From a virus, in the IMG/VR virus record IMGVR_UViG_3300045988_182866: a stretch of 64,000 nt of DNA; one strand, written 5' to 3'. The translations under genes were made by a program, and so were the position numbers. The notes beneath the pieces were generated by a model. The model did no database searches and had not been told where the DNA came from. It saw nothing but the letters and a program-made list of their open reading frames with translations. Positions 3,830 to 41,908 of this stretch are shown piece after piece. The number at the start of each line of letters is the position of its first letter. Within the stretch, counting starts at the first letter, position 1.

Positions 3830-4735
3830 CTATAATTTTTCTCTAATTTTCTGGAGGTGTTCAGATATTTCTTTTTTAATGGTTTCTGCATTAGTTTTCC
3901 ATTGGCTGTCCCAAACTTCAATTAAAGTGATTCTGGCATCTTTACAAAGTTGCCTTTTATTTTCATGATAGCCAGGTTCTTTTTCTTCATGTATTTTATG
4001 CCAGTATTCGCCATTATATTCAAGGGCAAGTTTTAATTCAGGAAGATAAATATCCAATTCTTTTCGACCAATAAATTTTCTTGTATTTTCGAGAATTTCT
4101 CCAGGATAAATTGATTTGATAAAATCGCATAACTCCTTTTCACCCTTAGATTTCTTTTCATGAAGGGCACATTTTAAACATCCCCGCCCAGTTAAGTGAT
4201 TATACGCCATTTGAGCAAATTTACCATGGACAGGACAAATAATAATCACATTTGTTTCTGCATTAATATAAATTGTTTTCGAATAATCGAATTTATGTCC
4301 ATGCACTTTTTGAGCACGGTTAATAAATTCTTTTGTGGTTAAACGCTCCAATCCTACGCAACTTTTGCATCCATGCCCCCTTAAATGATTGATGGGATAT
4401 TGCTGAAAAGGTCCATGAACAGGGCAAATAATAGGTACTTTTGCATGATTATTTTTATAGTTTACTTTAGAATAATCATATTTGTTCCCATGAACCTCTC
4501 TTGCTTTCTTTATAAACTTCTCAGTCGTTAAAGATTTTGCATCAACTGCACATTTAAAACATCCCTGACCTCGTAAATGGGCTCCGGCTCTTTGTTGGAA
4601 AGGTCCATGAACCGGGCAAATAACAGTTATAGAACTATAAGCATTTTTATAATTTACTTCAGAATAATCAAAAAAGTCTCCATGTATTTTTCTAGCCCTG
4701 TCAATAAAAATTTCAGTGGTTATTCTGTTGGGCAT
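3830..4735 (-). CDS. freestanding homing-endonuclease-like protein: 3 tandem zinc-ribbon repeats + C-terminal Vsr/DUF559-like PD-(D/E)xK nuclease domain (paralog 1 of 5)
   Basis: 301 aa. Repeats of HGxKYDYSKVNYKN...ICPVHGPFQQ...HLRGxGCxxC. C-terminus KELDIYLPELKLALEYNGEYWH matches the Vsr-type (I/F)xxDGxxWH core. Paralogous to 6412..7503, 24661..26190, 35717..36814 and 40559..41908. Confidence 0.55.
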   Translation of the reverse strand: MPNRITTEIFIDRARKIHGDFFDYSEVNYKNAYSSITVICPVHGPFQQRAGAHLRGQGCFKCAVDAKSLTTEKFIKKAREVHGNKYDYSKVNYKNNHAKVPIICPVHGPFQQYPINHLRGHGCKSCVGLERLTTKEFINRAQKVHGHKFDYSKTIYINAETNVIIICPVHGKFAQMAYNHLTGRGCLKCALHEKKSKGEKELCDFIKSIYPGEILENTRKFIGRKELDIYLPELKLALEYNGEYWHKIHEEKEPGYHENKRQLCKDARITLIEVWDSQWKTNAETIKKEISEHLQKIREKL

Positions 4736-4755
4736 AATAGTTTTTATTCAAAAAT

Positions 4756-4790
4756 AAAAAATCCTCAGATCAATTAAGACCTGAGGATTT
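4756..4790 (-). terminator. hairpin terminator 3' of the chaperonin gene (stem aaatcctcag / ctgaggattt, 12-nt loop, U-run on minus strand)
   Basis: 10-bp perfect inverted repeat followed (on the minus strand) by a T-rich run; lies between the chaperonin stop (4811) and the next gene's start (4735). Confidence 0.45.
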
Positions 4791-4810
4791 TCGGTTATCA
4801 TGATTACAAA

Positions 4811-6415
4811 TCACTTTTCAGATTGTTCATCAACCAAGAATGTTTCTGTTGTTAGAATCAAACCTGCCGATGCAGCGGCGTTTTCAATTGCGCAACGACA
4901 TACACTAAATGGATCAATAATTCCCGCTTCTAACATGTCTACTAACTTTTGCGTCTTAATATCAAACCCGATACTGCCTTTAGCTTTTGCAACCTTTTCG
5001 ATGATAACATCCGGTCGTTCAACTCCGGCATTCTCAAGAAGAGTCTTAAGAGGAATATCAAGAACCTTTCGCATTAAGTTAACACCGGCATTAAAAGATT
5101 CATCTCCTGTTTCAAACTTAATAGACTTGTTTTCTTTAATCTTAGCGAGAACAGATCCTCCTCCTGGAATAACTCCGGATCGTAAAGCCGCTTGACAGGC
5201 ACACACCGCATCGTCTACACGATCCTTAATTTCATTTAATTCAGATTCAGAATTACCTCCGATATTAAGAACACATACTCCTTGGGCAAGCTTGGCAATT
5301 CGCTTATTAAGCACATCTTCTTCCCAGGAACCAGGACTGCAATTATCTCGTTCCTCTTTAAGCAAATCAATATGTTCTTTAAGCCTTTGAGGATTTCCTC
5401 CGCCTTTTAAGAAAGTTGTATATCGTTTATCACAAACAATCTTTTCACAGGTGGCAAAATCTTCCTCTCTAATAGAATTAAAATCACGTGAAAGAAGTTC
5501 AGTAAAATATGTACCCCCTAAAGTAATTTCAAGATCTTCCATTTCTCTCTTCATGCCGTCTCCATATCCGGGACACTTAATGGCACAAATGTTAATAATG
5601 CCTTTAATCTTATTAATGACAAGAGTTTGAAGAACTTCGGATTCAATATCCGGAGCGATAATAAACAAAGGCCTTCCACGAAGTTCTTTAGTATTAAAGA
5701 CCTTTTGAAGAATAGGCATAATTTGTTGATTATTCGTCAATTTAATTCCGGATAAAAGAATTAAGGGATTTTCAAGAATACATTCTTGTTTAGTCGTATT
5801 ATTGACAAAATAAGAACTCATCCAGCCTCGAGGAACTCGTAAACCTGCAATAAACTGGGAAGAAGATTCATTACTCCTGCTGTCATTAATAGTAATGGAA
5901 CCATCCAAACCTACTTTTTCAACAGCTTCAGAAACAAGATGTGCAATTTCTTTATCCCAGTTGGTAGAAACTAAAGCAATTTGGTGAATCTGTTCTGGAG
6001 AACATTCCTGCTTAATATTTTCTTTAATATAGTTGGCAATTGTCTTTGCCGCTGAAATAACTCCGCGTTGAATTAAAATCGGATTATAACCTGTTTCAAT
6101 CAGCTTCATGCCTTCAGATGCAATAGCCCCAGTGAGGATTGCGCTGGTACTGGTCCCATCACCAGCCTGGTGCGCTGATTGCTCGGATGCTTGACGAATA
6201 ATATCTGCACCCATTTTTTCAAGTACATCAGGCGGATTTACATGACGAGCTACTGTAACGCCGTCTTTTGTAATATATGTCGCATTACCCATTCGATATA
6301 TTACATTTCTGCCGCCAGGCCCGAGCGTCGAAGAAACTGCATTAGCAAGTTTCTTTACACCATTAAGCAGTTTCTTCCTGCCTTCATTTCCCATATAAAT
6401 GTTTTGTTGAATCAT
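4811..6415 (-). CDS. groEL: GroEL-like group I chaperonin (Hsp60/Cpn60 family), phage-encoded
   Basis: 534 aa. Diagnostic GroEL motifs: GPGGRNVIY (GroEL GPKGRNVVL), AGDGTSTS (GroEL AGDGTTTA), and the C-terminal equatorial-domain pattern. No GroES-like co-chaperonin ORF is adjacent. Confidence 0.85.
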   Translation of the reverse strand: MIQQNIYMGNEGRKKLLNGVKKLANAVSSTLGPGGRNVIYRMGNATYITKDGVTVARHVNPPDVLEKMGADIIRQASEQSAHQAGDGTSTSAILTGAIASEGMKLIETGYNPILIQRGVISAAKTIANYIKENIKQECSPEQIHQIALVSTNWDKEIAHLVSEAVEKVGLDGSITINDSRSNESSSQFIAGLRVPRGWMSSYFVNNTTKQECILENPLILLSGIKLTNNQQIMPILQKVFNTKELRGRPLFIIAPDIESEVLQTLVINKIKGIINICAIKCPGYGDGMKREMEDLEITLGGTYFTELLSRDFNSIREEDFATCEKIVCDKRYTTFLKGGGNPQRLKEHIDLLKEERDNCSPGSWEEDVLNKRIAKLAQGVCVLNIGGNSESELNEIKDRVDDAVCACQAALRSGVIPGGGSVLAKIKENKSIKFETGDESFNAGVNLMRKVLDIPLKTLLENAGVERPDVIIEKVAKAKGSIGFDIKTQKLVDMLEAGIIDPFSVCRCAIENAAASAGLILTTETFLVDEQSEK

Positions 6416-7503
6416 GATTTACAATTATTATAGCATGTTTCTTTGATAAACTTTTTTAATTTTTCCTTATTCTTTCGCCACTGAGTATCTAAAATTTCTA
6501 TTAATTTTATACCTTTTTTCTCACAATCTTTTTTCTTTTGAACATGATAGCCTGGATATTTTTCTTCCTTTAACTTATGATGGTAATCACCGTTGCATTC
6601 AAAGGCTAGATTTAATTCAGGAAGATAAACATCAAGTTCTTTTTTTCCAATAATATCTCTTGGGTTTTCTTGAACCTCGCCTGGATAAATTGATTTAATA
6701 TATTGACAAAGTTCTATTTCACCTTTAGATCTTTTTGATGCCGCTAAGCATTTAGGGCAACCGCTTCCGCGTAGATGCGTATTGGGCAACTGTAAAAATG
6801 GGCCATGTTTTTTACAAGTTATAATAATTTTTGTTTTTGCATTTTTATAAGCTACCAAAGAATAATCATACTTGTCTCCATGAGTAGCTCTAGCTTTTTC
6901 TATAAATTCTTCAATAGTTCTCTTATTATTTCCGGCACAAAATGGGCAGCCGGAGCCTGAAAAATGCTTATCAGGGCGTTGTTCAAAAACTCCATGTATG
7001 GGACATATAATTTTTACTTTTGTTCTTTTATTTTTATAAATTACTAAAGAATAATCATATTTGGTTCCATGAACTTCAATAAATCTTTTTCTAATCTCTT
7101 CCTCAGTTAAAAACTGATTTTTAATTGCACATTTTTTACATCCTTTTCCTATTAAATGGCTTGATGGATCTTGCTTAAGGGTACAACCACATTTATTACA
7201 TTTTATGATTACCTCGGTTGTTGAATTTATATAATTAACTAAAGAATAATCATATCGGCCTTTCCCATGAATTTCTTCAGCTTTTTCTATAAATTCTTCT
7301 GTAGTCCTGTTAAATCCTTTACATTTAGGACAACCATGGCCCATTAAATGAATGTTGGGAATTTGCTCAAAGTAGCCATGTATGGGACAAAATATTTTAA
7401 TTAATGTTTTTGTGTTAAAATATACAACTTCAGAATAACCATACTTATTGCCATGTATTTCAATAGCTTTTTTAATAAACCCTTTAGTTGTTAATCTTTT
7501 CAC
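6412..7503 (-). CDS. freestanding homing-endonuclease-like protein: 4 zinc-ribbon repeats + Vsr/DUF559-like nuclease domain (paralog 2 of 5)
   Basis: 363 aa. Repeats IHGNKYGYSEVVYFN...CPIHGYFEQ...HLMGHGCPKC. C-terminus KELDVYLPELNLAFECNGDYHH. Overlaps the chaperonin start by 4 nt (ATGA). Confidence 0.55.
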   Translation of the reverse strand: MKRLTTKGFIKKAIEIHGNKYGYSEVVYFNTKTLIKIFCPIHGYFEQIPNIHLMGHGCPKCKGFNRTTEEFIEKAEEIHGKGRYDYSLVNYINSTTEVIIKCNKCGCTLKQDPSSHLIGKGCKKCAIKNQFLTEEEIRKRFIEVHGTKYDYSLVIYKNKRTKVKIICPIHGVFEQRPDKHFSGSGCPFCAGNNKRTIEEFIEKARATHGDKYDYSLVAYKNAKTKIIITCKKHGPFLQLPNTHLRGSGCPKCLAASKRSKGEIELCQYIKSIYPGEVQENPRDIIGKKELDVYLPELNLAFECNGDYHHKLKEEKYPGYHVQKKKDCEKKGIKLIEILDTQWRKNKEKLKKFIKETCYNNCKS

Positions 7504-7662
7504 GATTTTTAATCATTATAGCACGAATTAATAAATTTCTGCCCGCAATTTGAATCTAAATCTTCGAAAGATATGGAATTACCGCAAGGAGGATGCTTAT
7601 ATTGAACGGGAAAATATCCTTTCTGGCAGCAGCAAGAAGACAGAAGAAATATTACTAATAAT

Positions 7663-8085
7663 TTAACCCCAAGTGAATAATCCATAACCCCAGTACCGGC
7701 TTATATTAGGAAGAGGATTTGGTGTTTCTTCAAGGAAAATAGTCTGGCCGGGATGCCGCTTTTCATATACTTGCTTTACAAGGAAAATAATAAGAGATAT
7801 GAAAAAGTCAATTATAAAATGAACGTTATCTGTCTGTCCCTGTAAAATATTTTCGATGAGGTCAAATTTATTTTCTTTAAGATAATCAATTAGCTCAACC
7901 GGAAGAATATCATCTTCGCCAGCGGCAAAAATATTATCATCAAAATCAAACCCTAGTTCAGATTTAATGCCATCTAAACATTGTTCAAATTCTTCTTTAG
8001 TAAGATCAGTCTTTAACCATACTATATCTCTTTCATCATGTCCATCTCCGGACAAATCACCATATTCAAAACTAAAAATATTCAT
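7663..8085 (-). CDS. hypothetical protein (acidic N-terminus, hydrophobic segment)
   Basis: 140-aa ORF codirectional with its neighbours; no recognisable motif. Confidence 0.35.
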   Translation of the reverse strand: MNIFSFEYGDLSGDGHDERDIVWLKTDLTKEEFEQCLDGIKSELGFDFDDNIFAAGEDDILPVELIDYLKENKFDLIENILQGQTDNVHFIIDFFISLIIFLVKQVYEKRHPGQTIFLEETPNPLPNISRYWGYGLFTWG

Positions 8086-8145
8086 ATCAATATAAATGGA
8101 AATTCCGCCTAATATTAAATTAGGCAGAATTTCTTTATTTGTTAA

Positions 8146-9195
8146 TTAATTACCAGCAGGTTTAAAATCTGCAATATTCAGAACCTTAAACAAACCATCG
8201 TTTTGATTAGCTCCTCCCATAATCAACATTGAAGGAAGTTTAATATCTTTAAAAGATTCAAAAAACTTAATTCGTGCATAATTACTTCCCATTGCTGCAT
8301 TCAATTCTCGAATTGCTTCAGCTTCAAGCTTCTTACCTTGAGCTTCTGCGGTCTTCATAGCAAGAAGAGCTTCTGCTTCATTTTTCTTTTGAGCAAGCAT
8401 GGCCAAAGACTCTTGTTCTCGGCGATACCTTGCAGCATCAGATTCAGCCTTAGCCTGAAGAAGTTTACCTTGAGCTTCTGCAGCCATCTTATTGGCAATT
8501 GCCCGGCCTTCTGCATTAGCAATCTCTTCGGAACGCTTTGCAATTTCAAGCTGGGTAGCCTGGCGTTCATATTCCTGAGTAGCCTCAACCTTCTTAGTAA
8601 TACCAAGAGTCACCGATTCAGGTGGAATAGTGGAACCAATAGTTACACTTTCAACAATAAATGGAGTGCCATTAAGTTGCTTCTTAAGGTTAGTTTCTAC
8701 CATCTTGGTGATTTCCGGAATCCTAGAAGGAGCTTCTAGACCTTTAAACTTAGCAATAGCAGATCGTACTTCGGTACGGAAAGGTTGCTGAATAAATGAA
8801 GCGTAAGCATCTTGAGCAATAGCTTCCGGGCATCGAGCTGTTTCAGAGATAGCTCCATAATTTTCAACAAATTCCTTTACTTTTTCACTGTCGATACGAT
8901 AAACAAGATAAGATTCAGCCTTCATCTTAAGCTGGTCCGAACTACGAACATCATCAAAAGTTTCAGTCTGAGTATAAGGAGTTACGCAAATCTTAATAGA
9001 ATTCTGCCTCCATACCATACCTGTACTACCGGGTCCTTTAATTACTTGCTTAAATTCCTTCGAACCAAATATAGGTTCGGAATAAACATAACCTGCGTAA
9101 CCGCCATCGATTTTTTCATTTGAAAAATTAACGGCAAAAATAATAGCCGCAACAACGGCAATAATTAGAAATAGAGCTGCAAAAAAATCCTTCAT
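8146..9195 (-). CDS. SPFH/band-7 (stomatin/prohibitin/flotillin/HflK-C) family membrane protein
   Basis: 349 aa. N-terminal TM helix FFAALFLIIAVVAAIIFAV, then an SPFH-like core, then an Ala/Glu-rich coiled coil (EAEALLAMKTAEAQGKKLEAEAI) typical of HflK/HflC/YdjI-type proteins. Confidence 0.6.
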   Translation of the reverse strand: MKDFFAALFLIIAVVAAIIFAVNFSNEKIDGGYAGYVYSEPIFGSKEFKQVIKGPGSTGMVWRQNSIKICVTPYTQTETFDDVRSSDQLKMKAESYLVYRIDSEKVKEFVENYGAISETARCPEAIAQDAYASFIQQPFRTEVRSAIAKFKGLEAPSRIPEITKMVETNLKKQLNGTPFIVESVTIGSTIPPESVTLGITKKVEATQEYERQATQLEIAKRSEEIANAEGRAIANKMAAEAQGKLLQAKAESDAARYRREQESLAMLAQKKNEAEALLAMKTAEAQGKKLEAEAIRELNAAMGSNYARIKFFESFKDIKLPSMLIMGGANQNDGLFKVLNIADFKPAGN

Positions 9196-9687: not shown

Positions 9688-9690
9688 AGT

Positions 9691-11234: not shown

Positions 11235-11250
11235 TTTAAAGGTGATTAAT
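11235..11250 (-). promoter_or_regulatory. conserved 16-mer TTTAAAGGTGATTAAT (minus-strand ATTAATCACCTTTAAA) 27 nt upstream of a minus-strand start codon; exact second copy at 23485..23500
   Basis: Exact 16-nt duplicate found by eye. Both copies sit exactly 27 nt upstream of a minus-strand ATG (11207 and 23457). Confidence 0.35.
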
Positions 11251-11710
11251 TTCCTGCGTATTCAACTAAAAGAACAGAAATATCATGCTTTGTTCGAAAA
11301 TTATACAAAAGATTTTCAAATTCTTTTGGTTTTACTCGTCCTATACCGCATCCCAAAAAAGGCATTACAACAGTATTAAGATGATGAGTGTTCATAACTT
11401 CAAACAAATCGCAAAGAGACAAAGAAATATCTCCCAAATTTGCTATTGAACCAGGATAAAACATGGTTGGAACATTGGCAATCATTTTCCAATTATCTTC
11501 ATCGGACAAATAAAAATAATGGCCTTTACCAATATTAACCATTTTAGAATTACAAGAGTTCTGATAACTCCAGTACATTTCAGGAAATTTATCGGCAAAA
11601 GCTTTTGCAACTCCTGCTCCCATTACTCCGATACAATTGACGGCATTGCAAATTACATCCGCCTTTGTATCAAAGATATTTCCTTTTGTTTTAATAACTT
11701 TAAGAGACAT
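11246..11710 (-). CDS. macro domain protein (ADP-ribose binding / ADP-ribosyl hydrolase fold)
   Basis: 154 aa. ICNAVNCIGVMGAGVAKAF matches the macro-domain NAAN...GGGV signature. Confidence 0.6.
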   Translation of the reverse strand: MSLKVIKTKGNIFDTKADVICNAVNCIGVMGAGVAKAFADKFPEMYWSYQNSCNSKMVNIGKGHYFYLSDEDNWKMIANVPTMFYPGSIANLGDISLSLCDLFEVMNTHHLNTVVMPFLGCGIGRVKPKEFENLLYNFRTKHDISVLLVEYAGN

Positions 11711-13714: not shown

Positions 13715-14857
13715 TTATTTTCTAATTGCTTTAAACTTCCCAAACCTAGGTACATTAAGATCAGGAGTTAAATCCTGATAAATGATAGTTGCCATCTTGC
13801 CTTCATAAAGTGCTCGATTTTTGAAAAATTCACGTTTAGCAGGTTCATCCCAGCCTTTACCCATACCTACTGAAAATTGAACTCCATTTTCATCTTCACA
13901 AATTATTTGTGCTGCTTGTCCGGCATGATTACCCCGTCCATCAAGAATTTGAACAATCTTATATTCGCTATCTTGAAATCGCTTATACTTTACAAGATTA
14001 GAAGAACGTCCTTCATCATAAGTCATCTCGGGATTACGAAGCATAATTCCTTCAAATCCATTTTCGATTGCATCATCTAAATAAGCTTCTACCTCTTCAA
14101 AAGAATTAACTTCAAATTGAGTAACACCCAAACTATACTTTAATGTAATATTATTAATCTGAAGGGGATAAAGATGATGACAACATTGATTAAGCTTGGT
14201 ATGCTTATTACGGTCCTTATAAGGAATCTTTGTATTTCGTTCCGCAAAATCAAAAGCATGAAATTTAATAATGCTTTTTGTTTTTGCCAGGAATTCTTCA
14301 GTAATATTCTTAGTTCTAGAAATCAAAGATGCAACTTGATTAAAATCATCTCTAAGTTCATGAGAATATAATTCTCCATCAATAATTGCATTAGGATTAG
14401 CAATGAAATAAGGTTTCAACTCCTCAAATACATGAGGGCATGAAAGAATCTCATGATGAGTCCTTGAAAACATTCCTTTAGCACAAATATAACATCTAAA
14501 GCCATCTAATTTGGCAGAAGCAAATTGAGGAAATTTAATAAATTTCTTTCTTGCTTTAAATTCTTTGGCAAGAGTTACTTCAAATTGTTTTTCAGTTGGA
14601 ATAGTATCTTGAAACCCCCTTTTCCTTTGCTTTTCAATTCGAGATTGTACTTCTAAAGCACATTGCTGTTCAGGAGTAGTAGCATTAGAACGACCTTCAT
14701 TCTTACCTTCACAATAAGTCGGTTCAGTCGTAGTAATAGCTCCCCCTACTCGACCAGAAGACATAGTATACCAATTACTGGAATCGTCATAAGATATACT
14801 CCATGTAATAGGATTGCCTTTCTTATCGAGATTAAACAATTCGAAAGATTTAATCAT
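13715..14857 (-). CDS. ATP-dependent DNA ligase
   Basis: 380 aa. Motif I KxDGxR = AKLDGFRCY; motif IV EGIMLRNP; motif V LVKYKRF. Confidence 0.85.
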   Translation of the reverse strand: MIKSFELFNLDKKGNPITWSISYDDSSNWYTMSSGRVGGAITTTEPTYCEGKNEGRSNATTPEQQCALEVQSRIEKQRKRGFQDTIPTEKQFEVTLAKEFKARKKFIKFPQFASAKLDGFRCYICAKGMFSRTHHEILSCPHVFEELKPYFIANPNAIIDGELYSHELRDDFNQVASLISRTKNITEEFLAKTKSIIKFHAFDFAERNTKIPYKDRNKHTKLNQCCHHLYPLQINNITLKYSLGVTQFEVNSFEEVEAYLDDAIENGFEGIMLRNPEMTYDEGRSSNLVKYKRFQDSEYKIVQILDGRGNHAGQAAQIICEDENGVQFSVGMGKGWDEPAKREFFKNRALYEGKMATIIYQDLTPDLNVPRFGKFKAIRK

Positions 14858-14895
14858 TATTTTTTAATAAATTATTTCTTAAAAATCGATGGTGT

Positions 14896-15219
14896 TTAAA
14901 CTATCTCCTTAAAGTCAAAAGTCTCATCATCCTCATTGATAAATGAAACAAGATGGTAAGTTTCATCAGAAAATCCGTCTGAAACTTTTACTTTAATTTC
15001 CCACCCTTCCCCGAACAATCCTCCATAAGTACCCCAGAAAATTTGAGAAGCACAAAATTTAGCAGCATCCGCCATATTTTGGATATTGTTAGCTTTAATA
15101 TCATATTTGTTAACAATCAAATAACCTTGTTTCTTAACTTTTCCGTCATCCCAAAGTTCTTTAGCAATGCAAACATAATTTGCATCCTTAAGAAGTGACA
15201 TATTAATCTTTTTACTCAT
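14896..15219 (-). CDS. hypothetical protein
   Basis: 107-aa ORF overlapping the NTase gene start by 8 nt. Confidence 0.35.
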   Translation of the reverse strand: MSKKINMSLLKDANYVCIAKELWDDGKVKKQGYLIVNKYDIKANNIQNMADAAKFCASQIFWGTYGGLFGEGWEIKVKVSDGFSDETYHLVSFINEDDETFDFKEIV

Positions 15220-16258
15220 AAAAATTTAAAATATAATTCTTAAAAAATTCCTTATCAGGTTTTTCAGGTAATTTTGACTTATTAAACAATTCTTTTAATT
15301 CTAAAGATTTTTCATTTGCCAACTTCATTAGATAATCATATTCAAAATCGCCATTTCTAATCTTTAAAAGAAATTGTCTTAAAATAGGATTACATTTAAC
15401 CGTTAATGTTCCATCTTTTAAAATCTCTCTGCAAAGACTCATAAGACGGAAAAGATGCATCATATTCTTTGTATCATAAAAGGTTTTATCAGACGTCTTT
15501 TCTACATTTGTTGCATATCTTTTTTCATTCCTTTTAGCAACCCAATCCCAGTATTCTTTATATTCTTTACAATATTTCTGATAAGCCGGAATATTAATAA
15601 TCACATAGGCTGCGGTATTTGCATTTTTTGGAACCGATGTAATATTAATGTTCATGTCTAAAATAGGTCCGGCTTTACAAGGATGATTATAAAGTACATA
15701 AACATTTTCAGCATGATTCATTTTACAAAGAGATAAATTAGTCTCTTTAATACCACAGCATTCCAACCAGTCTCGATAAGGAATAGAATGTTGATAGCAC
15801 AACACCCAGCTAAAATCTTTTAACGTTTTTCTTTCTTTAGGAAAAGGATTAGCTGACTTTTTATTAACGTTTTTGGCCTTTAAAATTTGAGATTCAGCAT
15901 AAGCTCCAAAAGTATAAAAACATTTCTTGGAAAGAACTTTTTCAATTAGTGGATCAAATCGTTTATCCCTAATTTTAACATGTTCAGGATCAGTAGTAAA
16001 CAAAACTTCAAGAGCCGAAGGAGTATTCTTTCTTAGTTGTTCAAGGAAGAATCCAATCTCGGTATAGATAGTATCATTATTATTCTCCTGGATTACCTTT
16101 TCATATTCACCAACTAATATATCTTTAACAGGATGAGCAAAAACACCTCTAATATCAACATCCGAATCTTTAGTATTCAACCCATAAGAAATACTTCCCG
16201 CAATAACGCTCAATAATACTTCTTTACCCTTCAGAGGTCCTTCTCCACTTAAACACAT
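15212..16258 (-). CDS. Pol-beta-superfamily nucleotidyltransferase-fold protein
   Basis: 348 aa. The N-terminal GS-x9-DxD motif (LSVIAGSISYGLNTKDSDVDIRGVF) is the minimal NTase signature. Substrate unknown. Confidence 0.5.
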   Translation of the reverse strand: MCLSGEGPLKGKEVLLSVIAGSISYGLNTKDSDVDIRGVFAHPVKDILVGEYEKVIQENNNDTIYTEIGFFLEQLRKNTPSALEVLFTTDPEHVKIRDKRFDPLIEKVLSKKCFYTFGAYAESQILKAKNVNKKSANPFPKERKTLKDFSWVLCYQHSIPYRDWLECCGIKETNLSLCKMNHAENVYVLYNHPCKAGPILDMNINITSVPKNANTAAYVIINIPAYQKYCKEYKEYWDWVAKRNEKRYATNVEKTSDKTFYDTKNMMHLFRLMSLCREILKDGTLTVKCNPILRQFLLKIRNGDFEYDYLMKLANEKSLELKELFNKSKLPEKPDKEFFKNYILNFYE

Positions 16259-23899: not shown

Positions 23900-24628
23900 T
23901 TGAGACTTCTTTTTTGTATGAATGTAACTATTATTAGTATGGAACAAAAAGAACGAATTAAAAGAATTCAAAAAGCTTTGAATGTCAACGCAGATGGTAT
24001 TATTGGAGATAAAACTCTTACAGCTATTGAAGGGCTGCTGAATTTAAATAAACCCATAGAGGATAACATGGGATATTCCGTAGTCATAAGTATAGGTCAT
24101 TCTACTGCAGATAAAGGCGCAGTAGCATCGGATGGTCATATTGCCGAATATGACTATAATAAAAAGCTGGCAGATATTATTAAAAAGGAACTTGAAAGTA
24201 CAAAAAGTCTTTCTGTTCATGTCGTTAATCGCTTAACTGACGGAGGAGGGAAAGGTGTTTCTGCTTCCGTTAAAGCTATAAACATGTATAAAAGTGATTG
24301 TGCTATTGAGCTTCATGCAAATGCCTATAATGGTACTGCTTCTGGCTCTGAAGTTCTTTATTGGCATACTTCAACTAAAGGCAAGAAACTTGCGACCGAC
24401 CTTCAAGAAGCTATTATTAAAGTTTTAAATCTTCCAAATAGAGGTATTAAGCCATTATCCGGTGAAGATCGAGGTGGGGGAATTCTTAAAGGAACAGTTG
24501 CGCCGACAGTAATAACTGAACCGTTTTTCATCGATAATCCTAAGGACCTTAAATTAGCTGAAGATAAAATTGAACAGTTAGGAGTAGCTATGGCTAATAC
24601 TATTATCAAATATCTTTATACAAATTAG
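23900..24628 (+). CDS. endolysin: peptidoglycan-binding domain + N-acetylmuramoyl-L-alanine amidase (Amidase_3 type)
   Basis: 242 aa. PG_binding_1-like IQKALNVNADGIIGDKTLTAIEGLL; amidase core SIGHSTADKGA...ELHANAYNG...SEVLYWH. Confidence 0.7.
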   Translation: MRLLFCMNVTIISMEQKERIKRIQKALNVNADGIIGDKTLTAIEGLLNLNKPIEDNMGYSVVISIGHSTADKGAVASDGHIAEYDYNKKLADIIKKELESTKSLSVHVVNRLTDGGGKGVSASVKAINMYKSDCAIELHANAYNGTASGSEVLYWHTSTKGKKLATDLQEAIIKVLNLPNRGIKPLSGEDRGGGILKGTVAPTVITEPFFIDNPKDLKLAEDKIEQLGVAMANTIIKYLYTN

Positions 24629-24660
24629 GATGATTTCTATCATCCTTAAATATACTCTAT

Positions 24661-26190
24661 ATGAACCTTTCTTTATTGACAGTATTATGTCATGGCAAAA
24701 ATAATAGCCAACTTAAAGAATTATTAAAAAATAATAAAATATTAAATTTTATTAATACTTTTATTAAAGATAAACCTTATTATGAAACACCCTTTAGATT
24801 TTTAAAATTGTTGAGTAAAAATGCAACATTACCTGCCTGTATTATATGTGGAAATATTATTTCTTATAGTATTTGGAATAGACGTAATAATGCTAAATTT
24901 TGTTCTAAAACTTGCAAATATTCTAAAGAAGGTAAAGAAAATACTAGAAAAAATATTGAAAAAACATTAATTGAAAAATATAAGGTTAAAAATATTTTAC
25001 AACATAAAAAGTTTAAAGAAAAACAAGAATTAACTTGTTTAGCAAAATACGGAACTAAATTTTATTCAAAAACTTCAGAATGTAAAGAAAAAGTTAAGAA
25101 GACGTCATTAGAAAAATTTGGTACAAATAATGTGATGTTCAATAAAAAGGTTTTAAAAAATATAAAAAATAATAATTTATTAAAATTTGGGGTTGAATGG
25201 CCTTTATCAGATAAAACTATTCATAAAAAAACTATGAATAGTCTTGTTAAAAAACATTTAGAAAAGCTTAAAAAGTTTAATTTAACTTTGTTAGATGAAT
25301 ATCAATCCACAAAAGAATACTATAATTTTAAATGTGCTACATGTGGTAATACATTTAAAGATCATTTAAAAAATGGTAGAATTCCTATATGCAAACATTG
25401 CTTTCCTTCTAATACTTCTATTGGGGAAAAAGAATTATCAAACTTTATTAAACAATTTTCTTCTAATATTAGCTTAAATGATAGAACATTAATAAATCCT
25501 TTAGAATTAGATATTGTTATTCCAGAAAAACATTTAGCAATAGAATTTAATGGGCTATATTGGCATTCTGAAGAACATGGTAAAAATGAAAATTATCATA
25601 TTAATAAATCATTATTATGTAAATCTAAAAACTTTAATTTAATTCATATATTTGAAGATGAATGGCTTTTTCAAAAAAATATAATAAAAGGTATTATAAA
25701 AGATTATTTTAATAGCAAAAAAATAAAAACAAATTTTATTACATTTAAAAAAATCGATAATAAATTAGCTAAAAAATTTAATGAAAAATATAATATTCTT
25801 GGACATATTACTACAAAAAATAATTTTGGACTTTTTTATAAAAATAGATTAATACATGTATTATCTGTTGGAAAACCAAGATTTAATAAAATTTACAAAT
25901 ATGAAATTTATCGATTATCCTCAACATTTAATTTTAAAATTGAAAATTATTTTAAAGTTTTAATTGATAATTTACCTTTATCAATTAAAGAATCATTAAT
26001 ATTTTATGAAAATAAACGTTTTCCTATTATTAATAAAACATTATTAGATAATTTGATATTTTTATCAAATTCTAAGCCAAGCTATTTTTTTGTCAAAAAT
26101 AAAAATAGATATTCAAAATATAATAAAATAAATAGATTTGATTATAAAATTTGGGATTGCGGATCAACACTTTATCAGGTTAAATATTAA
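24661..26190 (+). CDS. divergent member of the homing-endonuclease-like family (zinc ribbons + central Vsr-like nuclease domain + ~170-aa C-terminal extension; paralog 3 of 5)
   Basis: 509 aa. Contains ELDIVIPEKHLAIEFNGLYWH (Vsr-like core) and CxxC/HC ribbons (IPICKHCFP, CATCGNTF); weaker repeats than the other paralogs. Confidence 0.45.
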   Translation: MNLSLLTVLCHGKNNSQLKELLKNNKILNFINTFIKDKPYYETPFRFLKLLSKNATLPACIICGNIISYSIWNRRNNAKFCSKTCKYSKEGKENTRKNIEKTLIEKYKVKNILQHKKFKEKQELTCLAKYGTKFYSKTSECKEKVKKTSLEKFGTNNVMFNKKVLKNIKNNNLLKFGVEWPLSDKTIHKKTMNSLVKKHLEKLKKFNLTLLDEYQSTKEYYNFKCATCGNTFKDHLKNGRIPICKHCFPSNTSIGEKELSNFIKQFSSNISLNDRTLINPLELDIVIPEKHLAIEFNGLYWHSEEHGKNENYHINKSLLCKSKNFNLIHIFEDEWLFQKNIIKGIIKDYFNSKKIKTNFITFKKIDNKLAKKFNEKYNILGHITTKNNFGLFYKNRLIHVLSVGKPRFNKIYKYEIYRLSSTFNFKIENYFKVLIDNLPLSIKESLIFYENKRFPIINKTLLDNLIFLSNSKPSYFFVKNKNRYSKYNKINRFDYKIWDCGSTLYQVKY

Positions 26191-26303
26191 ACATAAACAT
26201 GTTTAAAAATATTCTTCGATTTATCGTCTTTATCGCTTATAAATGGATTGAAGGAACTAAACGAAAGTAAAGCACCTTTTTAAATCCAGTTAATCTTTAA
26301 ACT

Positions 26304-33793: not shown

Positions 33794-34402
33794 TTAATTA
33801 ATCCATCTAATTATTGGTTCATTTTTTATCTCCTTTTGCCACACATACATACAATAAGCAGCCGCACCACTATTTTTAAAATTATCGGTTCCTTTACCGC
33901 AACCTTGCCTGTTTACATATACATATACATATTTTGGTGGATATTTTTTAAAAAAATTATAACGTTTGGCTGATTCAAGAAAGGTGAGTTTCATAAACAT
34001 AATGACTAAACCATTATTTTTAACAGTTTTTATTGCTTTTTCTGTAATTTCAACTGCATATCTGTAAGGAGGATTTGTAAAAATACAATCAAATTGATTA
34101 TCCCATTTATTAGTTTTTAAAAAATCAATACCAGTTTCTTCCCCATATCCTCTGTCAATTAAATCAGAAGAATAAACTGAATATCCATTTTCTTTTAATA
34201 TTTTGGATATCGAACCTATACCACAGCATGGTTCTAAAATATTATTAGGAATTATTAAATTAGTATTTTTAGCTGCTTTTAAAAATAATTTTATTGATTC
34301 AGGATGAGTACAATAAAAATCATATTCTTCTACTTCAATCTCCTTTTTTCGATGATTTACTGAATAAAATCCTGAATTTCCGCCTGTCCAATCTTTAATC
34401 AT
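33794..34402 (-). CDS. orphan DNA amino-methyltransferase (N6-adenine or N4-cytosine; NPPY class)
   Basis: 202 aa. Motif I NNILEPCCGIGSISKIL (AdoMet binding); motif IV IFTNPPYR. No adjacent restriction endonuclease gene. Confidence 0.7.
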   Translation of the reverse strand: MIKDWTGGNSGFYSVNHRKKEIEVEEYDFYCTHPESIKLFLKAAKNTNLIIPNNILEPCCGIGSISKILKENGYSVYSSDLIDRGYGEETGIDFLKTNKWDNQFDCIFTNPPYRYAVEITEKAIKTVKNNGLVIMFMKLTFLESAKRYNFFKKYPPKYVYVYVNRQGCGKGTDNFKNSGAAAYCMYVWQKEIKNEPIIRWIN

Positions 34403-35701: not shown

Positions 35702-35737
35702 AAAAAAGCTGAATCATTAATTTGATTCAGCTTTTTT
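35702..35737. terminator. conserved hairpin family, copy A (aaaaaagctgaatca-ttaatt-tgattcagctttttt)
   Basis: Perfect stem flanked by A-run and T-run; lies between convergent genes and overlaps the last codons of 35717..36814. Confidence 0.5.
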
Positions 35738-36814
35738 AATCGCTTCTTGAATTAAAAGTTTTATTTGATCTTTATTTTTCTTCCATTTACTTTCCCAAAT
35801 TTCTATCAATGTAATTCCCCTTTCAATACATTGATTTCTTTTATTTTCATGATAACCCAGATTTCGATCTTCGTGTAATTTATGCCAGTAATCTCCATTA
35901 TATTCAAAGGCTAATTTTAATTCAGGGAGATAAATATCAAGCTCTAATTGATTATCAAGTTGATTTCTAGAATTTTTTATAATTTTTCTTGAATATATCG
36001 AATTAATATATTCAAAAAGTTCTTTTTCACCTTTAGATCTTTTCGAAGCTTTTACACATTTAATACAGCCACTTCCATTTAAATGAATATATGCTCTTTG
36101 TCGAAAGACACCATGCCTTGGACAAATAATATTCACATAATCACGAGCACTTTTATATTCAACTCTTGAATAATCATATTTGTCTCCATGAACTTCTTGA
36201 GCTCTTTTAATAAATTCTTCAGTTGTTAAAAATTGCTTTTCTCTTTTACATTCTGGACATTCATTGCCTTGTAAATGTGACCCTGCATGTTGTCGAAATA
36301 ATCCATGCTTAGGACATATTATTGTTATATGATTTTTTACGCCATTATAAATCACTTTAGAATAATCATAATAATTTCCATGCACTTTTTTAGCTTTTTC
36401 AATAAACTCTTCTCTTGATAAAAGATCTTTTATTTTAGCACAATAAGGACATCCACTTCCATTTAAATGGCTGCCAGCCATTTGTTCAAATTTATGCCCG
36501 CATTTATTACAAATAATCCAAATTTTTGATTTACAATTTACGTATATCGATATTGAATAATTATACTTATCACCATGAACTTTTCTTGCTTTTTCTATAA
36601 ATTTTTCTGTTGTTAACTGTGCCGTGGGAATACATTTAGGACATCCACATCCTCTTAAATGTTCTGATGCTTTTTGCCAAAAATATCCATTCTCAGGACA
36701 ACCAATTTCTATTTTTGCAAGACTACTTTTATATTCAACTCTTGAATAATCATATTTGTCACCATGTATTTCTTTAGCCCTTTGTATAAATTCTTCAGTT
36801 GTTAGCTTTTTCAT
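35717..36814 (-). CDS. freestanding homing-endonuclease-like protein: 5 zinc-ribbon repeats + Vsr/DUF559-like nuclease domain (paralog 4 of 5)
   Basis: 365 aa. Repeats IHGDKYDYSRVEYKS...CPxHGxFxQ...HLxGxGCPxC. C-terminus QLELDIYLPELKLAFEYNGDYWH. Confidence 0.55.
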   Translation of the reverse strand: MKKLTTEEFIQRAKEIHGDKYDYSRVEYKSSLAKIEIGCPENGYFWQKASEHLRGCGCPKCIPTAQLTTEKFIEKARKVHGDKYNYSISIYVNCKSKIWIICNKCGHKFEQMAGSHLNGSGCPYCAKIKDLLSREEFIEKAKKVHGNYYDYSKVIYNGVKNHITIICPKHGLFRQHAGSHLQGNECPECKREKQFLTTEEFIKRAQEVHGDKYDYSRVEYKSARDYVNIICPRHGVFRQRAYIHLNGSGCIKCVKASKRSKGEKELFEYINSIYSRKIIKNSRNQLDNQLELDIYLPELKLAFEYNGDYWHKLHEDRNLGYHENKRNQCIERGITLIEIWESKWKKNKDQIKLLIQEAIKKAESN

Positions 36815-36921
36815 AACTAAACTTTAATTTTATATAATAATTCTCAATTTTATTTGGTACTAAATTAATAGTAAGTGTATTAATGATTTTTATACAATCT
36901 ATACGCTAATAAATAATTACT

Positions 36922-37410
36922 ATGAAAAAGTTTAAAGTAAAAGAACTTAGATTTTCTAATTTACTCGTTGAAGATATAAATGTTCCCAAAAATCTTATTG
37001 TTCGAATTAAGAATATTCCTAGATCTAAAAAGGCTTTACTTGAAGAAGTTGCTAAGAAAATTAGCGAAAAATATGGAAAAGATGTTAAACACTTTATTCT
37101 TGAAGATTTAGAAATAGAAGGGCCAAAGAATTTTGCTAAAAATCCTACTATTACAAAGCGTCTTCAAAAACGTCGAAAAGTTTTGAAAAACTATATTGAT
37201 GAAATAGGTGAAGAAGATAGTCAATTAAGTTATGAAGTTACAAAAGCTATTATAAATGTTTTTGGTGAAAAATTTTTAGACAAATATAGTGTTAATATTC
37301 GCGATCAAATTGAAAAATTTAGTAAAAAAATTGCGGGTCTTAAAACACTTGCTGATAGGCCAAAAGATGATCCTTATAAAAAGCGGTTGGATAACTGGAG
37401 GATTGGTTAA
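36922..37410 (+). CDS. hypothetical basic protein
   Basis: 162-aa ORF. Confidence 0.35.
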   Translation: MKKFKVKELRFSNLLVEDINVPKNLIVRIKNIPRSKKALLEEVAKKISEKYGKDVKHFILEDLEIEGPKNFAKNPTITKRLQKRRKVLKNYIDEIGEEDSQLSYEVTKAIINVFGEKFLDKYSVNIRDQIEKFSKKIAGLKTLADRPKDDPYKKRLDNWRIG

Positions 37411-37420
37411 CCTTTAAAAG

Positions 37421-37555: not shown

Positions 37556-40402
37556 TTAAGCGCTAAATTCTGTTGAAATCACGCCAGATCTAGAAGCGGT
37601 CAAGTCAATGAGAATGCGTTCTGCACTACGCGTTGGAGCTGCATATGTTGAGATACGCATTACACCGGCATCGATCTCAGTTTCCGTATTATTCCTTTCA
37701 TCGCAAACAAGAACATAAGAATAGATTGCTCGTTGTTCTTGTAGTGCATCAAATGCTGGAGTTAACACATTTGTTACATTCAAACGGGTGTACAAGGTAT
37801 TACCTTCAAACAGCCATTGCTTGGCTGTATCACGCAACAGTTTAAGAATGTAAAGCATTGTTCTTCGGGCAGAAATTTGATCTAACGCTGAGTCGCGCTT
37901 TATCATAGTTCTAATTCCGTACAACATTGTTCCAGAAGAAGGAGATACGATAATCGGATTAAGAGAAATACGATATAAATCATCTCGTTGCTTTTGCTGA
38001 GTAGAGAAGGAAATATCAAGCACAGAACTTAATACACCATTATTCATGCCAGCGGCAGCTTGCCATGGACCATATAAGGCATCCGTAGCAGCAATCTTTT
38101 GAGCGACAAATCCAGAAGCAGGAGCCCAGAATTGAGTACTGTTTACAGGATCTTGTACCTTTAAGAAATACGGATAAACAGCCATATAAGAGGAAGCTAA
38201 TCCATCATATAAATGCCTGTTAGGCCAGTAGATTGAAGTCGAGAAAGAATGCTTAACATTATCCAGAGCAGTATAAGCTGCATTGACTAAGGGCATTCCA
38301 AATTGTTTTTCAATCTTGTTATCCTTGCCTTCGACGGAAATTTGACGAATTGTATCACCAATGAAGAATACATCGCCTCGTCCGCCTTCTTGCTGAGCAG
38401 AAGCTAATTTTAAGAAAGCCGATTGAATAGCTCGATGATTAGCGATCACTTGTTCAGCCGCGGAAGATAAGGTAGACTTACCAGTACGCATATCCGTTAC
38501 ACCTTGAATAACTTTGGTATCATCGAATAATGCAGCTTCTGGATCATATCCATTCGGATATTGCTCCTTAACTTTATCTTGTTCAGTTGTTTGGCCATCT
38601 CCACGATCGGTATCAGCCTTAATTGCAGCCTGGAGCTTTTCTTTATAGCTTCGATAAGCTGCATCCATAGCTCCAACATAGATAGTTCCCATGCCGCCTT
38701 CTAACAAAAGGTCAACGTCATAGAGTTCTTCATTTTCAACTAATTCAAGAGCAGCCTCGATTTTCTTGGGAAGATTACCAATGATTTTAGAAGCATTATT
38801 GGAACGGGCATATAAACCTAACGGATACATGGAATCACCCATTTCAAAGGTCGGATAATCAGTTGGAATACTTTGAAGAACAGCCTTTGAAATACCGGCC
38901 GGAGAAGCCATGATGTCTTCGATGGAACCCGCCATTTCATCATCAGTCAATGCAATGTCAAGCAATTGCTGGGCATAAATACGAACCTTAATCTTCGGAG
39001 AACCGTCAACATATAGTCCGCGAGAATTTAACGCTCCTGAGAAGTTCGGATTAACAAACATGCGAACTAAAGTATCATTAGCCGTTGTATTCTCAATAAA
39101 GAAGTTAACTGCAGATGTAGTATACTTGGAAGTAGTCTGTCGTCCATATTCTAAGGAAGCATTATATCCTTGAGTAATCAGGGCAGAAAGTTTAAGAGCA
39201 TCTCCAGAATTAGTAGCCTGGCGAACCTTAAAGACGCCTACATTTAATGTATCATTCCATTGAGCTCCGGAAATATCAAAATCAGTGATGGATTCTTCCA
39301 TAACCTGAGAGATACATCCTTTCAACGGAGAAGAAAGCTTAAAGTCAAGGCGTTCATTAGGAACAGTCGTATACTGAAGACCCGTAAGACCTTCTTCAAT
39401 AGAAGCAGGAAGCTGAGTTACAGTCTTAAGCTTGCGCACGGCCGCATAAGAAGTACCAGGATCAGAGAAAGCATTATCGGATAACGCAAGATAAAAACCT
39501 TCAAAAAGATCATTTGTTACCGTCTTGCCAAAGTTAAGAGCTAAGAAAGCAAACTGCCCCAAATCGGCAAGCTGAGTAGAAATAGTTTGAGGAATTGCAT
39601 CGGACCAGTTAAATTCTCCAGAACCATCCAAAGCTTGTCCATTTAAAAATCGATAATACTGTTCAATAGAAATATTAAACTGAACAGGTTCACCGATTAA
39701 AAATGTAGCGGAATCTTCATATTCACCTTTGATACCGGCGGAACCATCTGAATAATTCGTAATAGGCTTAAAGGAATTATTAGCAGATTGAACATAATAA
39801 GTTGCAAAGACAGCATTCTGAGTTGGAACATCTGTTACCTCAGTATATTCAGATCCATTCTTAGTATAGATCGTAACCTTATTGGTGAAATTAGTTAACG
39901 GAGTTCCGGCCTGGTCCATATAATATTGAACCTGCACTTTAGCAGCAATATCAGGAGAAACAGGAGTATAAGAAGTAGAACGGGTTACCTTGGTATAAAG
40001 CTGAACAGATGTATCAATACGTTGTTCAGGGGTAGCTTCATTATAAACTTCTTCAGAATCAATAGCATATCCAAGAGCCGGATAAGCAAGAATAGAAACG
40101 GAAGCAGATTTAGTATCTCCTAAGTCTACACCATAAGGAAGTCGGGAAACACTTACATAAGCAGCAGAATTTAATGCTGCGTCTACTGTTGCATAAGAAT
40201 AGCGCTCAGAACTTGTAACAGGTTCTCCGAATATTTCAACATATTCACTGATTGTCGAAACAGAAGTAACTTCAGAAGTAGGTCCTTGTTGGCTGAAAAT
40301 TGGTATAAAGACCGACGTTCCGGCAGACTGCGCCGCTCGTGTCGATTGGTCGCGTTCCAAAATTTCGACGCCCGGGCTGATAATTGTGGGTGTAATTGCC
40401 AT
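37556..40402 (-). CDS. tail sheath protein (gp18-like), unusually large
   Basis: 948 aa. N-terminus MAITPTIISPGVEILERDQS matches the sheath N-terminal signature (T4 gp18 LLSPGIELKETT). Conserved C-terminal sheath region (...RISTYAAPTRSAERILIDLTASRSGVISTEF). Confidence 0.75.
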   Translation of the reverse strand: MAITPTIISPGVEILERDQSTRAAQSAGTSVFIPIFSQQGPTSEVTSVSTISEYVEIFGEPVTSSERYSYATVDAALNSAAYVSVSRLPYGVDLGDTKSASVSILAYPALGYAIDSEEVYNEATPEQRIDTSVQLYTKVTRSTSYTPVSPDIAAKVQVQYYMDQAGTPLTNFTNKVTIYTKNGSEYTEVTDVPTQNAVFATYYVQSANNSFKPITNYSDGSAGIKGEYEDSATFLIGEPVQFNISIEQYYRFLNGQALDGSGEFNWSDAIPQTISTQLADLGQFAFLALNFGKTVTNDLFEGFYLALSDNAFSDPGTSYAAVRKLKTVTQLPASIEEGLTGLQYTTVPNERLDFKLSSPLKGCISQVMEESITDFDISGAQWNDTLNVGVFKVRQATNSGDALKLSALITQGYNASLEYGRQTTSKYTTSAVNFFIENTTANDTLVRMFVNPNFSGALNSRGLYVDGSPKIKVRIYAQQLLDIALTDDEMAGSIEDIMASPAGISKAVLQSIPTDYPTFEMGDSMYPLGLYARSNNASKIIGNLPKKIEAALELVENEELYDVDLLLEGGMGTIYVGAMDAAYRSYKEKLQAAIKADTDRGDGQTTEQDKVKEQYPNGYDPEAALFDDTKVIQGVTDMRTGKSTLSSAAEQVIANHRAIQSAFLKLASAQQEGGRGDVFFIGDTIRQISVEGKDNKIEKQFGMPLVNAAYTALDNVKHSFSTSIYWPNRHLYDGLASSYMAVYPYFLKVQDPVNSTQFWAPASGFVAQKIAATDALYGPWQAAAGMNNGVLSSVLDISFSTQQKQRDDLYRISLNPIIVSPSSGTMLYGIRTMIKRDSALDQISARRTMLYILKLLRDTAKQWLFEGNTLYTRLNVTNVLTPAFDALQEQRAIYSYVLVCDERNNTETEIDAGVMRISTYAAPTRSAERILIDLTASRSGVISTEFSA

Positions 40403-40558
40403 AATATATTTTTAAGTTAAATTATTAAATCTTAGAAAGTTTAACAAAAGATATTTACATTTATAACGGCTAGTTCAGGTTCTATTTTACTTCTTGGATA
40501 AATAAACACTCTTCAATTTAGCACCAAAATAAAATCAGGATAAAATAATATCCAATTT

Positions 40559-41908
40559 ATGGCAATTAAACGACTTACGACAGAAATTTTTATAGAAAGG
40601 GCCAAAGCAAAACACGGTATAGACAGGTATGATTACTCGGCAACCAATTATACCCATTGTAATAATAAAATTATAATCAAGTGTTTAATACATAATTTAA
40701 TATTTGAAACCTACCCCCATAATCATTTAAGAGGGAATGGAGGTTGCCCTCTATGTGCTAAAGAAGGACGATCTTTATCATGGCAATCTTTTTTAGAAAA
40801 AAGCATCGAAGCTCACGGGCAAAATCGATATGATTATTCATATGCTAAAAAAGAGTATAAAGGAACCAAATCAAAAATTACAATAATATGTAAAAAATGT
40901 GGACATAGATTTGTTCAATTACCTTCTAATCATATAAAAGGCCATGGTTGTATAAATTGTGTAAATTTAGCTAAATCATTTGATAAAAATTTCTTTATTA
41001 AAGAGGCAGAAAAGAAACATGGTATTGGGAGATATGATTACTCAAAAATAAAATATAAAAATTCATATACTCCCATTTATATTATTTGTAATAAATGTAA
41101 TAAAAAATTTTATCAGCAGCCACGAATACATTTAAAAGGAATTGGATGTTCTCATTGTTATTATAAAAGTAAAACATTAACTAAGGAAGAATTTATTAAA
41201 AGCGCTGAAGAAATACATGAAAAAGGAAAATATGATTATTCTAATGTAGAATATATACAGTCTAACATTAAGATTAAAATTAAATGTAATAAATGTAATA
41301 ATATTTTTTGGCAATATCCCCATGAACATTTAAAAGCCAAAGGATGCCGAATTTGTGCAATTAAAGATATTACTGATACAAAAGAAACATTTATTAAAAA
41401 GGCAAAGAAAGTTCATAAGGATTTTTATGATTATTCAAGTATAAAATATATAAATTCTCAAACTTTAATTTATATTAATTGTCCAAAACATGGTTTTTTC
41501 GCACAACGGCCAAATGCTCATCTAAGAGGTCATGGATGTCCGAATTGTGCACTCGCTGCACAAAGATCTCGAGGAGAAATAGAACTTGGAGAATTTATTA
41601 AATCAATTTATTCCAATAAAATTTTAAAAAATTCTAAAACACAACTTGGAAATAAAATGGAATTGGATATATATCTTCCTGAATTAAAACTCGCCATTGA
41701 GTATAATGGCGATTATTGGCATAATTTGAAAGAGGCCAAACATCCTGGCTGCCATGAAGATAAAAGAAACCGATGTAAAGAAAGAGGAATTAAACTTATT
41801 GAAGTTTTAGATACGGAATGGCAAAAGAATAAAGATCAAATTAAAGAATCTCTTAAAAAACAAATTGGAGAACTTATCAAAATTAGCACCAAAATAAAAT
41901 CAGGATAA
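40559..41908 (+). CDS. freestanding homing-endonuclease-like protein: 6 zinc-ribbon repeats + Vsr/DUF559-like nuclease domain (paralog 5 of 5)
   Basis: 449 aa. Repeats HGxxRYDYS...C..H...F...P..HL.G.GC..C. C-terminus KMELDIYLPELKLAIEYNGDYWH. Confidence 0.55.
   Translation: MAIKRLTTEIFIERAKAKHGIDRYDYSATNYTHCNNKIIIKCLIHNLIFETYPHNHLRGNGGCPLCAKEGRSLSWQSFLEKSIEAHGQNRYDYSYAKKEYKGTKSKITIICKKCGHRFVQLPSNHIKGHGCINCVNLAKSFDKNFFIKEAEKKHGIGRYDYSKIKYKNSYTPIYIICNKCNKKFYQQPRIHLKGIGCSHCYYKSKTLTKEEFIKSAEEIHEKGKYDYSNVEYIQSNIKIKIKCNKCNNIFWQYPHEHLKAKGCRICAIKDITDTKETFIKKAKKVHKDFYDYSSIKYINSQTLIYINCPKHGFFAQRPNAHLRGHGCPNCALAAQRSRGEIELGEFIKSIYSNKILKNSKTQLGNKMELDIYLPELKLAIEYNGDYWHNLKEAKHPGCHEDKRNRCKERGIKLIEVLDTEWQKNKDQIKESLKKQIGELIKISTKIKSG

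Follow-up and report, generated by a model that had tools for sequence, protein, structure and literature searches.

Homing endonucleases of the EDxHD family are typified by I-Bth0305I (PDB 3r3p; Taylor et al., PMC3239194), which is intron-encoded and carries an N-terminal NUMOD/helix-turn-helix region; the same authors placed the Hef-type proteins in this family. Merk et al. (Nucleic Acids Research, 2025; PMC12350094) described a "large unrecognized outgroup" in which three to five domains of ~60 aa, resembling CapR, DUF4379, and DUF723, precede a C-terminal EDxHD/Vsr-like domain of ~100 aa; such homing endonuclease genes (HEGs) are intron-borne in phages, free-standing homologues are mentioned and relatives number in the thousands, in an account without biochemistry or population data. 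Variable numbers of CapR/DUF723/DUF4379 zinc fingers are also found in the T5orf172 HEGs, for which modular recognition has been proposed (Barth et al., 2023; PMC10448857). The structurally related mismatch endonuclease Vsr (PDB 1cw0) and DUF559 protein NGO0050 (PDB 3hrl), by contrast, are stand-alone bacterial repair or uncharacterised proteins that have no DNA-binding arrays and are not mobile. We analysed a 64,000-nt stretch of viral DNA (hereafter the window) from IMG/VR record IMGVR_UViG_3300045988_182866, and find in it five intact open reading frames (ORFs), HEGs A to E, and the wreck of a sixth, HEG F, that are probably free-standing HEGs of the Vsr-like (EDxHD) superfamily, carried by a ~200-kb T4-like phage of the human gut.

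An ORF listing of the window puts HEGs A to E exactly where, and on the strands on which, an earlier sequence-only reading had placed them; that reading counted a family of five, and the five intact genes stand, whereas a truncated sixth copy had been missed. The genes lie among rIIA, rIIB, and genes for a GroEL-like chaperonin, an amidase, a head-closure protein, and the tail sheath, and are arranged as follows.

114..227, minus strand: HEG F remnant, a 37-aa ORF equal to the first half of one module (MVKFTTEKFIEKAIKKHGPDRYDYS), found by tblastn of the five proteins against the window.
3830..4735, minus strand: HEG A, 301 aa, between rIIA and the GroEL-like gene; three predicted zinc modules (4169-4735) and a Vsr-like nuclease domain (3830-4168).
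6412..7503, minus strand: HEG B, 363 aa, GTG start; four modules (6748-7503) and a nuclease domain (6412-6747).
24661..26190, plus strand: HEG C, 509 aa, Hef-type; N-terminal Cys cluster, DUF7487 repeats (~24937-25260), putative zinc ribbon (25321-25401), Vsr-like nuclease core (25408-25716), and Mom-family-like C-terminal domain (25717-26190).
35717..36814, minus strand: HEG D, 365 aa, adjoining the head-closure gene; four modules (36056-36814) and a nuclease domain (35717-36055).
40559..41908, plus strand: HEG E, 449 aa, adjoining the tail sheath gene; five modules (40559-41548) and a nuclease domain (41549-41908).

The products of HEGs A, B, D, and E are mutually 46-53% identical over their full length (BLASTP E 1e-85 to 1e-116), and each consists of tandem modules (three in A, four in B, four in D, and five in E), every one ending G-x-G-C-x-x-C, and then a C-terminal domain of ~112 aa. 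The modules recur with a period of 61-68 aa (~64), longer than the ~50 aa first proposed, and their number per protein runs from three to five rather than the proposed three to six. The shared repeat, earlier ascribed to all five proteins, is a property of these four; HEG C lacks any module of this type and has the nuclease core alone in common with them (36-41% identity over 100-140 aa). What all five do share, as had been claimed, is an NGxYWH-type C-terminal block, ELD-x8-LA(I/F)E(Y/F/C)NGxY(W/H)H. The endonuclease family matches PHROG families 559, 681, and 3339 at E 1e-60 to 1e-79 (HEG A through PHROG 559/681; PHROG 559 is labelled "HNH endonuclease"), and no useful NCBIfam match was obtained for the proteins. 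An Rfam scan detected neither a group I or II intron nor any other Rfam family in the window, and the endonuclease genes are therefore not intron-borne.

Modules of ~60 aa, three to five in number, leading directly into a C-terminal domain of ~100 aa constitute the layout that Merk et al. gave for their outgroup, and HEGs A, B, D, and E have this same layout (compared by description, not sequence to sequence); in place of the NUMOD/helix-turn-helix region of I-Bth0305I they use zinc modules. HEGs A to E are hence new genes of an already described kind. The sequence-only reading had not recognised the pairing of repeat array and Vsr-type nuclease as a characterised family; the layout is in fact set out in PMC12350094 and its members bear the RefSeq name "homing endonuclease", although the remark does hold for biochemistry, which is lacking for every family member. 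The family has many members: 4335 protein clusters (at 90% identity) match it at E <= 1e-5, the top matches usually having six modules, and homologues occur in 1215-1407 phage records under the names "homing endonuclease" (RefSeq) or "Hef-like", the latter being the annotation of a zinc-module relative in Tenacibaculum phage PTm1. The T5orf172 HEGs have the same kind of modules as the window genes but an unrelated catalytic domain (GIY-YIG-related as opposed to Vsr-like), and some homologues of the window modules end in a T5orf172-type tail.

We sought the identity of the C-terminal domain in profile searches and structure prediction. A profile built from 36 diverse nuclease domains, run against all PDB sequences, placed I-Bth0305I (3r3p) at the top (E 0.005), followed by the DUF559 protein 3hrl and then three Vsr entries, in agreement with the earlier assignment to a Vsr/DUF559 core of the I-Bth0305I class. 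Pfam yields for this block only matches to REase_MTES_1575 that lie below threshold. The AlphaFold2 model of the HEG A domain has a predicted local distance difference test score (pLDDT) of 93.6, and the domain has the Vsr-like variant of the PD-(D/E)XK fold. Two other searches were set aside: full-length queries against PDB sequences returned spurious repeat matches alone (concatenated RecA constructs, TRIM32), making the nuclease-domain profile necessary, and a narrow hidden Markov model made from the window paralogues failed to pick up the nuclease domain in 84 of the 120 top homologues, which on inspection carry a diverged LDFYLP...AIECQGxQHF version of the same domain.

The residues of interest, in HEG A numbering, are E199, D228, E239, N241, H246, H257, and K260. 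Equivalences to I-Bth0305I and Vsr are taken from the profile alignment (a sequence alignment, not a superposition), with residue roles as given in PMC3239194:

E199 of HEG A: E170 in I-Bth0305I, E25 in Vsr.
D228: D196 in I-Bth0305I, D51 in Vsr.
E239, an extra conserved acid: E206 in I-Bth0305I, no counterpart in Vsr.
N241: N208 in I-Bth0305I, H64 in Vsr.
H246: H213 in I-Bth0305I, H69 in Vsr.
H257: D222, the last motif residue, in I-Bth0305I, D97 in Vsr.

All five window proteins keep E199, D228, N241, and H246, and among the 36 diverse homologues D228, E239, and G242 are invariant while E199 is present in 32. The ~112-aa domain most likely cuts DNA. Vsr-like folds have been reused for RNA or protein binding, as in the RAP/FASTK domains, and one might ask if the C-terminal block is a non-nuclease of that sort; given that the acidic and His residues of the Vsr/I-Bth0305I active site are conserved across the 36 homologues, and that the genes behave as mobile DNA (below), we regard the probability of this as negligible.

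The modules preceding the nuclease domain conform to the consensus LTTEEFIxKAxxxHGxKYDYSxVxYxNxxxKIxIxCPxHGxFxQxPxxHLxGxGCPxC, with a predicted ligand pattern of C-x2-(H/C) ... C-x2-C in each. C42, H55, C61, and C64 are invariant over 50 modules and homologues; position 45 is His in modules with CPxHG and Cys in those with CNKCG, a His/Cys swap of the sort expected of a metal ligand. Pfam DUF4379 ("probable treble clef zinc finger") is matched by B, D, and E at 43-52 bits (cut-off 24.5 bits) and DUF723 by A and B at 28.1 and 25.5 bits (cut-off 20.9 bits), CapR matches in the module proteins being weak. A structure model of a single module (pLDDT 92.6) has a helix at residues 9-20, strands at 37-42 and 46-51, and helices at 52-56 and 62-66, such that the first Cys/His pair sits on the β-hairpin and a short helix begins at the CxxC. 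The DUF4379 label and this predicted layout make the module look like a treble-clef-like finger rather than the classical zinc ribbon first suggested; a search of the PDB gave no match to it. We take the array most likely to bind an extended DNA site, and a different target for each copy, as had been proposed from the variable arrays, is plausible. Recent shuffling of modules between the window paralogues was considered and rejected, the best cross-paralogue module identity being at most 65%, with no sign of exchange.

To place these genes in a population context, we compared the same loci in relatives (given L numbers here) at 96-99% nucleotide identity. Metagenomes from the human gut commonly contain near-identical contigs of 190-203 kb, and several hundred contigs of ~200 kb belong to this phage; no close isolated phage was found, the nearest tail sheath being at most 35% identical over about one third of its length. 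The endonuclease genes are intergenic and polymorphic among phages at least 96% identical, as expected of the mobile free-standing genes that the sequence-only reading had proposed; the outcome that would have spoken against it, fixed ancient genes at orthologous positions in all relatives, is refuted by the comparison. HEGs B and C are present or absent at fixed sites with clean junctions; the variation in A, D, E, and F is one of allele or state.

HEG B, whose stop codon overlaps the GroEL start codon (ATGA), is present in five of 13 informative relatives (L018, L019, L020, L023, L024) and absent in the other eight (L001, L002, L017, L021, L022, L026, L027, L029). It lies between two imperfect direct repeats:

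7500..7523, minus strand: upstream copy of the 24-bp repeat, TGCTATAATGATTAAAAATCGTGA, matching the copy at 6412-6435 at 20 of 24 bases (four changes).
6412..6435, minus strand: downstream copy, TGCTATAATAATTGTAAATCATGA, encoding the last seven residues of B.

The downstream repeat falls within the last codons of B, and the GroEL gene therefore retains its own upstream sequence. In the B-less allele there is a clean junction with a single 24-bp copy identical to the downstream repeat (TTCGTGCTATAATAATTGTAAATCATGATT), the junction of orf140 and GroEL in the L001 type reading TTCGTGCTATAATAATTGTAAATCATGATTCAAC. We also observe within the repeat a perfect extended -10 promoter consensus, TGCTATAAT, 12 nt before the GroEL start codon.

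Whether a genome has B does not follow its flanking haplotype: the B-bearing window shares its upstream haplotype with B-less L001 and L017, and B-less L027 shares one with B-bearing L018 and L024. Between the window and L023, synonymous divergence (dS) is 0.039 for B and 0.118 for the adjacent GroEL gene; on this measure B is younger than the DNA around it, which is what recent lateral spread would produce. The same site brings up the alternative of former HEGs that no longer cut, decaying or inactive passengers whose polymorphism reflects repeated deletion, since the imperfect 24-bp repeats could mediate precise excision. Such a history of shared ancestry and loss is a poorer fit than recent spread to a B gene that occurs on different flanking haplotypes and is near-identical across strains whose GroEL genes differ three times more at synonymous sites, and we consider it unlikely; the allelic data below bear on it further.

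The other sites vary as well. At the A site, a three-module allele is found in the window and six relatives (301 aa in L018-L021 and L030, 304 aa in L023), a two-module allele in L001 (in which modules 1 and 2 are fused exactly and in frame at the ICPVHGPFQQ that they share), and four-module alleles in L022, L025, and L026, while L017 has a frameshifted copy and L002 a deletion that spares only the last ~90 nt of the gene; where the rest of HEG A would lie, L002 has 372 bp (8666-9037) that are unrelated to it and contain no obvious ORF. These A alleles differ at dS 0.49-0.93, against 0.12-0.15 for GroEL. L006 carries a divergent 366-aa allele at the D site (dS ~1.1), and L004-L006 have at the E site a 377-aa, four-module allele that has in common with window E only about the first 27 and the last 30 residues. 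L002, L021, and L030 have HEG F intact (372 aa); the gene is frameshifted in L001, L017, L018, and L023, and split by a 390-aa TnpB gene in L019, L020, L026, and the window itself. Such frameshifts, the deletion of A, and the TnpB-split F are what a family of decayed genes would leave, as is module 1 of window D, which reads CPENG in place of the CPEHG of L004 and has lost the putative His ligand; the ratio of nonsynonymous to synonymous divergence (dN/dS) is also three to eight times that of GroEL (0.17-0.39 vs 0.05). Yet a ratio of 0.17-0.39 still signifies purifying selection, the endonuclease genes being therefore constrained, but loosely, and all five window ORFs are intact with every conserved nuclease residue kept.

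The alleles bear equally on how the arrays might read DNA. The occurrence of two-, three-, and four-module alleles at the same site argues against module number as a strict code of one module to one subsite, and an additive recognition code, with every module recognising its own short stretch of DNA, is to our minds a doubtful proposition.

The insertion in HEG F lies at the edge of the window:

1..69, plus strand: 3' end of the TnpB gene, 22 codons and the stop of the 390-aa gene, with a translation matching the TnpB C-terminus.

Window positions 1-300 are 99.3% identical to L019, in which the complete TnpB gene (14356-15528) matches Pfam OrfB_IS605, Cas12f1-like_TNB, and HTH_OrfB. The TnpB element replaced most of HEG F, its boundary falling at about window 133/134 (the element being window 1-133), such that an RNA-guided mobile nuclease sits inside a protein-guided one.

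HEG C differs from the other four in its accessory domains. It has Pfam DUF7487 repeats (E 2.4e-13), one CxxC...CxxC ribbon, and an extra C-terminal domain of ~155 aa, and its residues 60-507 are collinear with Acj9p227 (E 3e-32, 25% identity over ~450 aa), a HEG between nrdA and nrdB, the hef position; these alignments make HEG C a relative of the Hef type, which combines that nuclease core with other accessory domains. Acj9p227, as the gene at the Hef position, represents Hef (of phage U5) here; it and HEG C are both free-standing, in the manner of Hef and the Hef-like HEGs of T4-type phages, whereas HEGs A, B, D, and E resemble Acj9p227 in the nuclease core only (aa 259-344) and have neither DUF7487 repeats nor a Mom-like C-terminal domain. 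The C-terminal ~155 aa of HEG C (25717-26190) align with the C-terminus of Tenacibaculum phage PTm1 ORF-303 (E 1e-7), which matches Pfam Mom (PF25680) at E 1.5e-7, and this domain recurs in the Hef-position gene of Acj9; a Mom-family-like domain thus seems to be part of Hef-type endonucleases.

HEG C is absent in L010, L011, and L012, where 1571 bp (24623-26193) are replaced by 6 bp at a clean junction (L010 type, from the amidase 3' end onward: AAATATTTGTACACACAAAGTTAAACATGTTT). The two flanks of the insertion are unequal, and the left one contains the following feature.

24505..24622, plus strand: divergent tract within the amidase gene's 3' end, immediately before HEG C.

Whereas the right flank is 100% identical to that of gene-less relatives, the left flank runs at ~100% identity for >1 kb and then drops to 87-95% over the final ~200 bp of the amidase gene; against L010, 25 of the 26 differences across the 729 nt of this gene fall within the last 124 nt, and they are mostly synonymous (12 vs 4 codons). 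This one-sided tract of ~125 bp is a candidate for co-conversion from a diverged donor, for a target site with immunity substitutions, or for both.

The distribution of HEG C touches on a further alternative, that these are domesticated nucleases or DNA-binding proteins, not purely selfish, which exclude competitors, degrade host or satellite DNA, or regulate transcription in the manner of CapR. An identical HEG C protein is found in 810 blocks of the assembly collection (always directly after the amidase gene among the eight matches listed), and precedents for domestication are known (PMC10448857): a T5orf172 nuclease with CapR-type modules that works as a repressor, and the HEG Odn of ICP1. 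B and C are, however, missing from phages that are otherwise near-identical, and some relatives have A deleted or frameshifted; none of these three genes is required. There is moreover no significant match to a PADLOC defence family, and marker exclusion is itself a normal consequence of homing. We accordingly find domestication very improbable.

Of these readings, we favor free-standing homing endonuclease genes. In a co-infected cell, each enzyme would cleave a related phage's gene-less allele near its own insertion site, and repair of the cut genome by recombination with the gene-bearing one would bring in the gene together with some flanking DNA; the presence/absence and allele data fit the cycle of gain, spread, decay, and replacement of HEGs. 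Four points weigh against this. There is no published cleavage assay for any protein with this layout. The last EDxHD residue is His (H257) rather than Asp in all five copies, Asp being found in 23 of the 36 homologues. A single site accommodates alleles of two to four modules, which suggests that the target does not closely dictate how many modules an array has. Finally, the direct repeats around B also allow precise deletion, and presence/absence alone therefore cannot separate gain from loss.

Several other features of these loci were noted. No obvious Shine-Dalgarno sequence lies upstream of any of the five endonuclease genes. A motif, TTTAG(T/C)ACCAAA, stands ~35 nt before the start codons of both D (36853-36864, minus strand) and E (40517-40528, plus strand) and might serve as a common promoter or belong to the mobile unit; it is not significant alone, the same count being reached in 26 of 100 shuffles. 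Beside D, a 202-aa ORF (33794-34402, minus strand) matching the middle of the DNA methyltransferase family phrog_799 (E 5.5e-57) and a 162-aa ORF (36922-37410, plus strand) with no PHROG match are both absent in L006, and are further dispensable genes. Elsewhere, L002 (2099-3211), L021, L023, and L026 have a 370-aa TnpB-like gene at window position 11259/11260, and L024 (5057-6082) and L025 an IS1595-family transposase between GroEL and rIIA; the window contains neither. ARAGORN calls an 88-nt tRNA-Asp at 11453-11540 (minus strand) inside the ORF at 11246-11710, where Rfam finds no tRNA, and the call is probably false.

Should the additive code hold after all, the arrays would be a natural, re-targetable counterpart of zinc-finger and TALE arrays, fused to a compact and possibly dimerising Vsr-like cleavage domain; the material for decoding it would be the two-, three-, and four-module alleles at one site, the swapped arrays at two others, and the gene-less targets. 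The locus set in any case comprises ready substrates for a first biochemistry of the family, with intact genes, gene-less target alleles, and a natural array-length series, all from one widespread gut phage. Our understanding of how homing endonucleases act is unchanged by these genes; what they add, besides substrates, is a population picture, in which a single population displays every stage in the life of such genes, from arrival and spread to decay, replacement, and invasion by TnpB.

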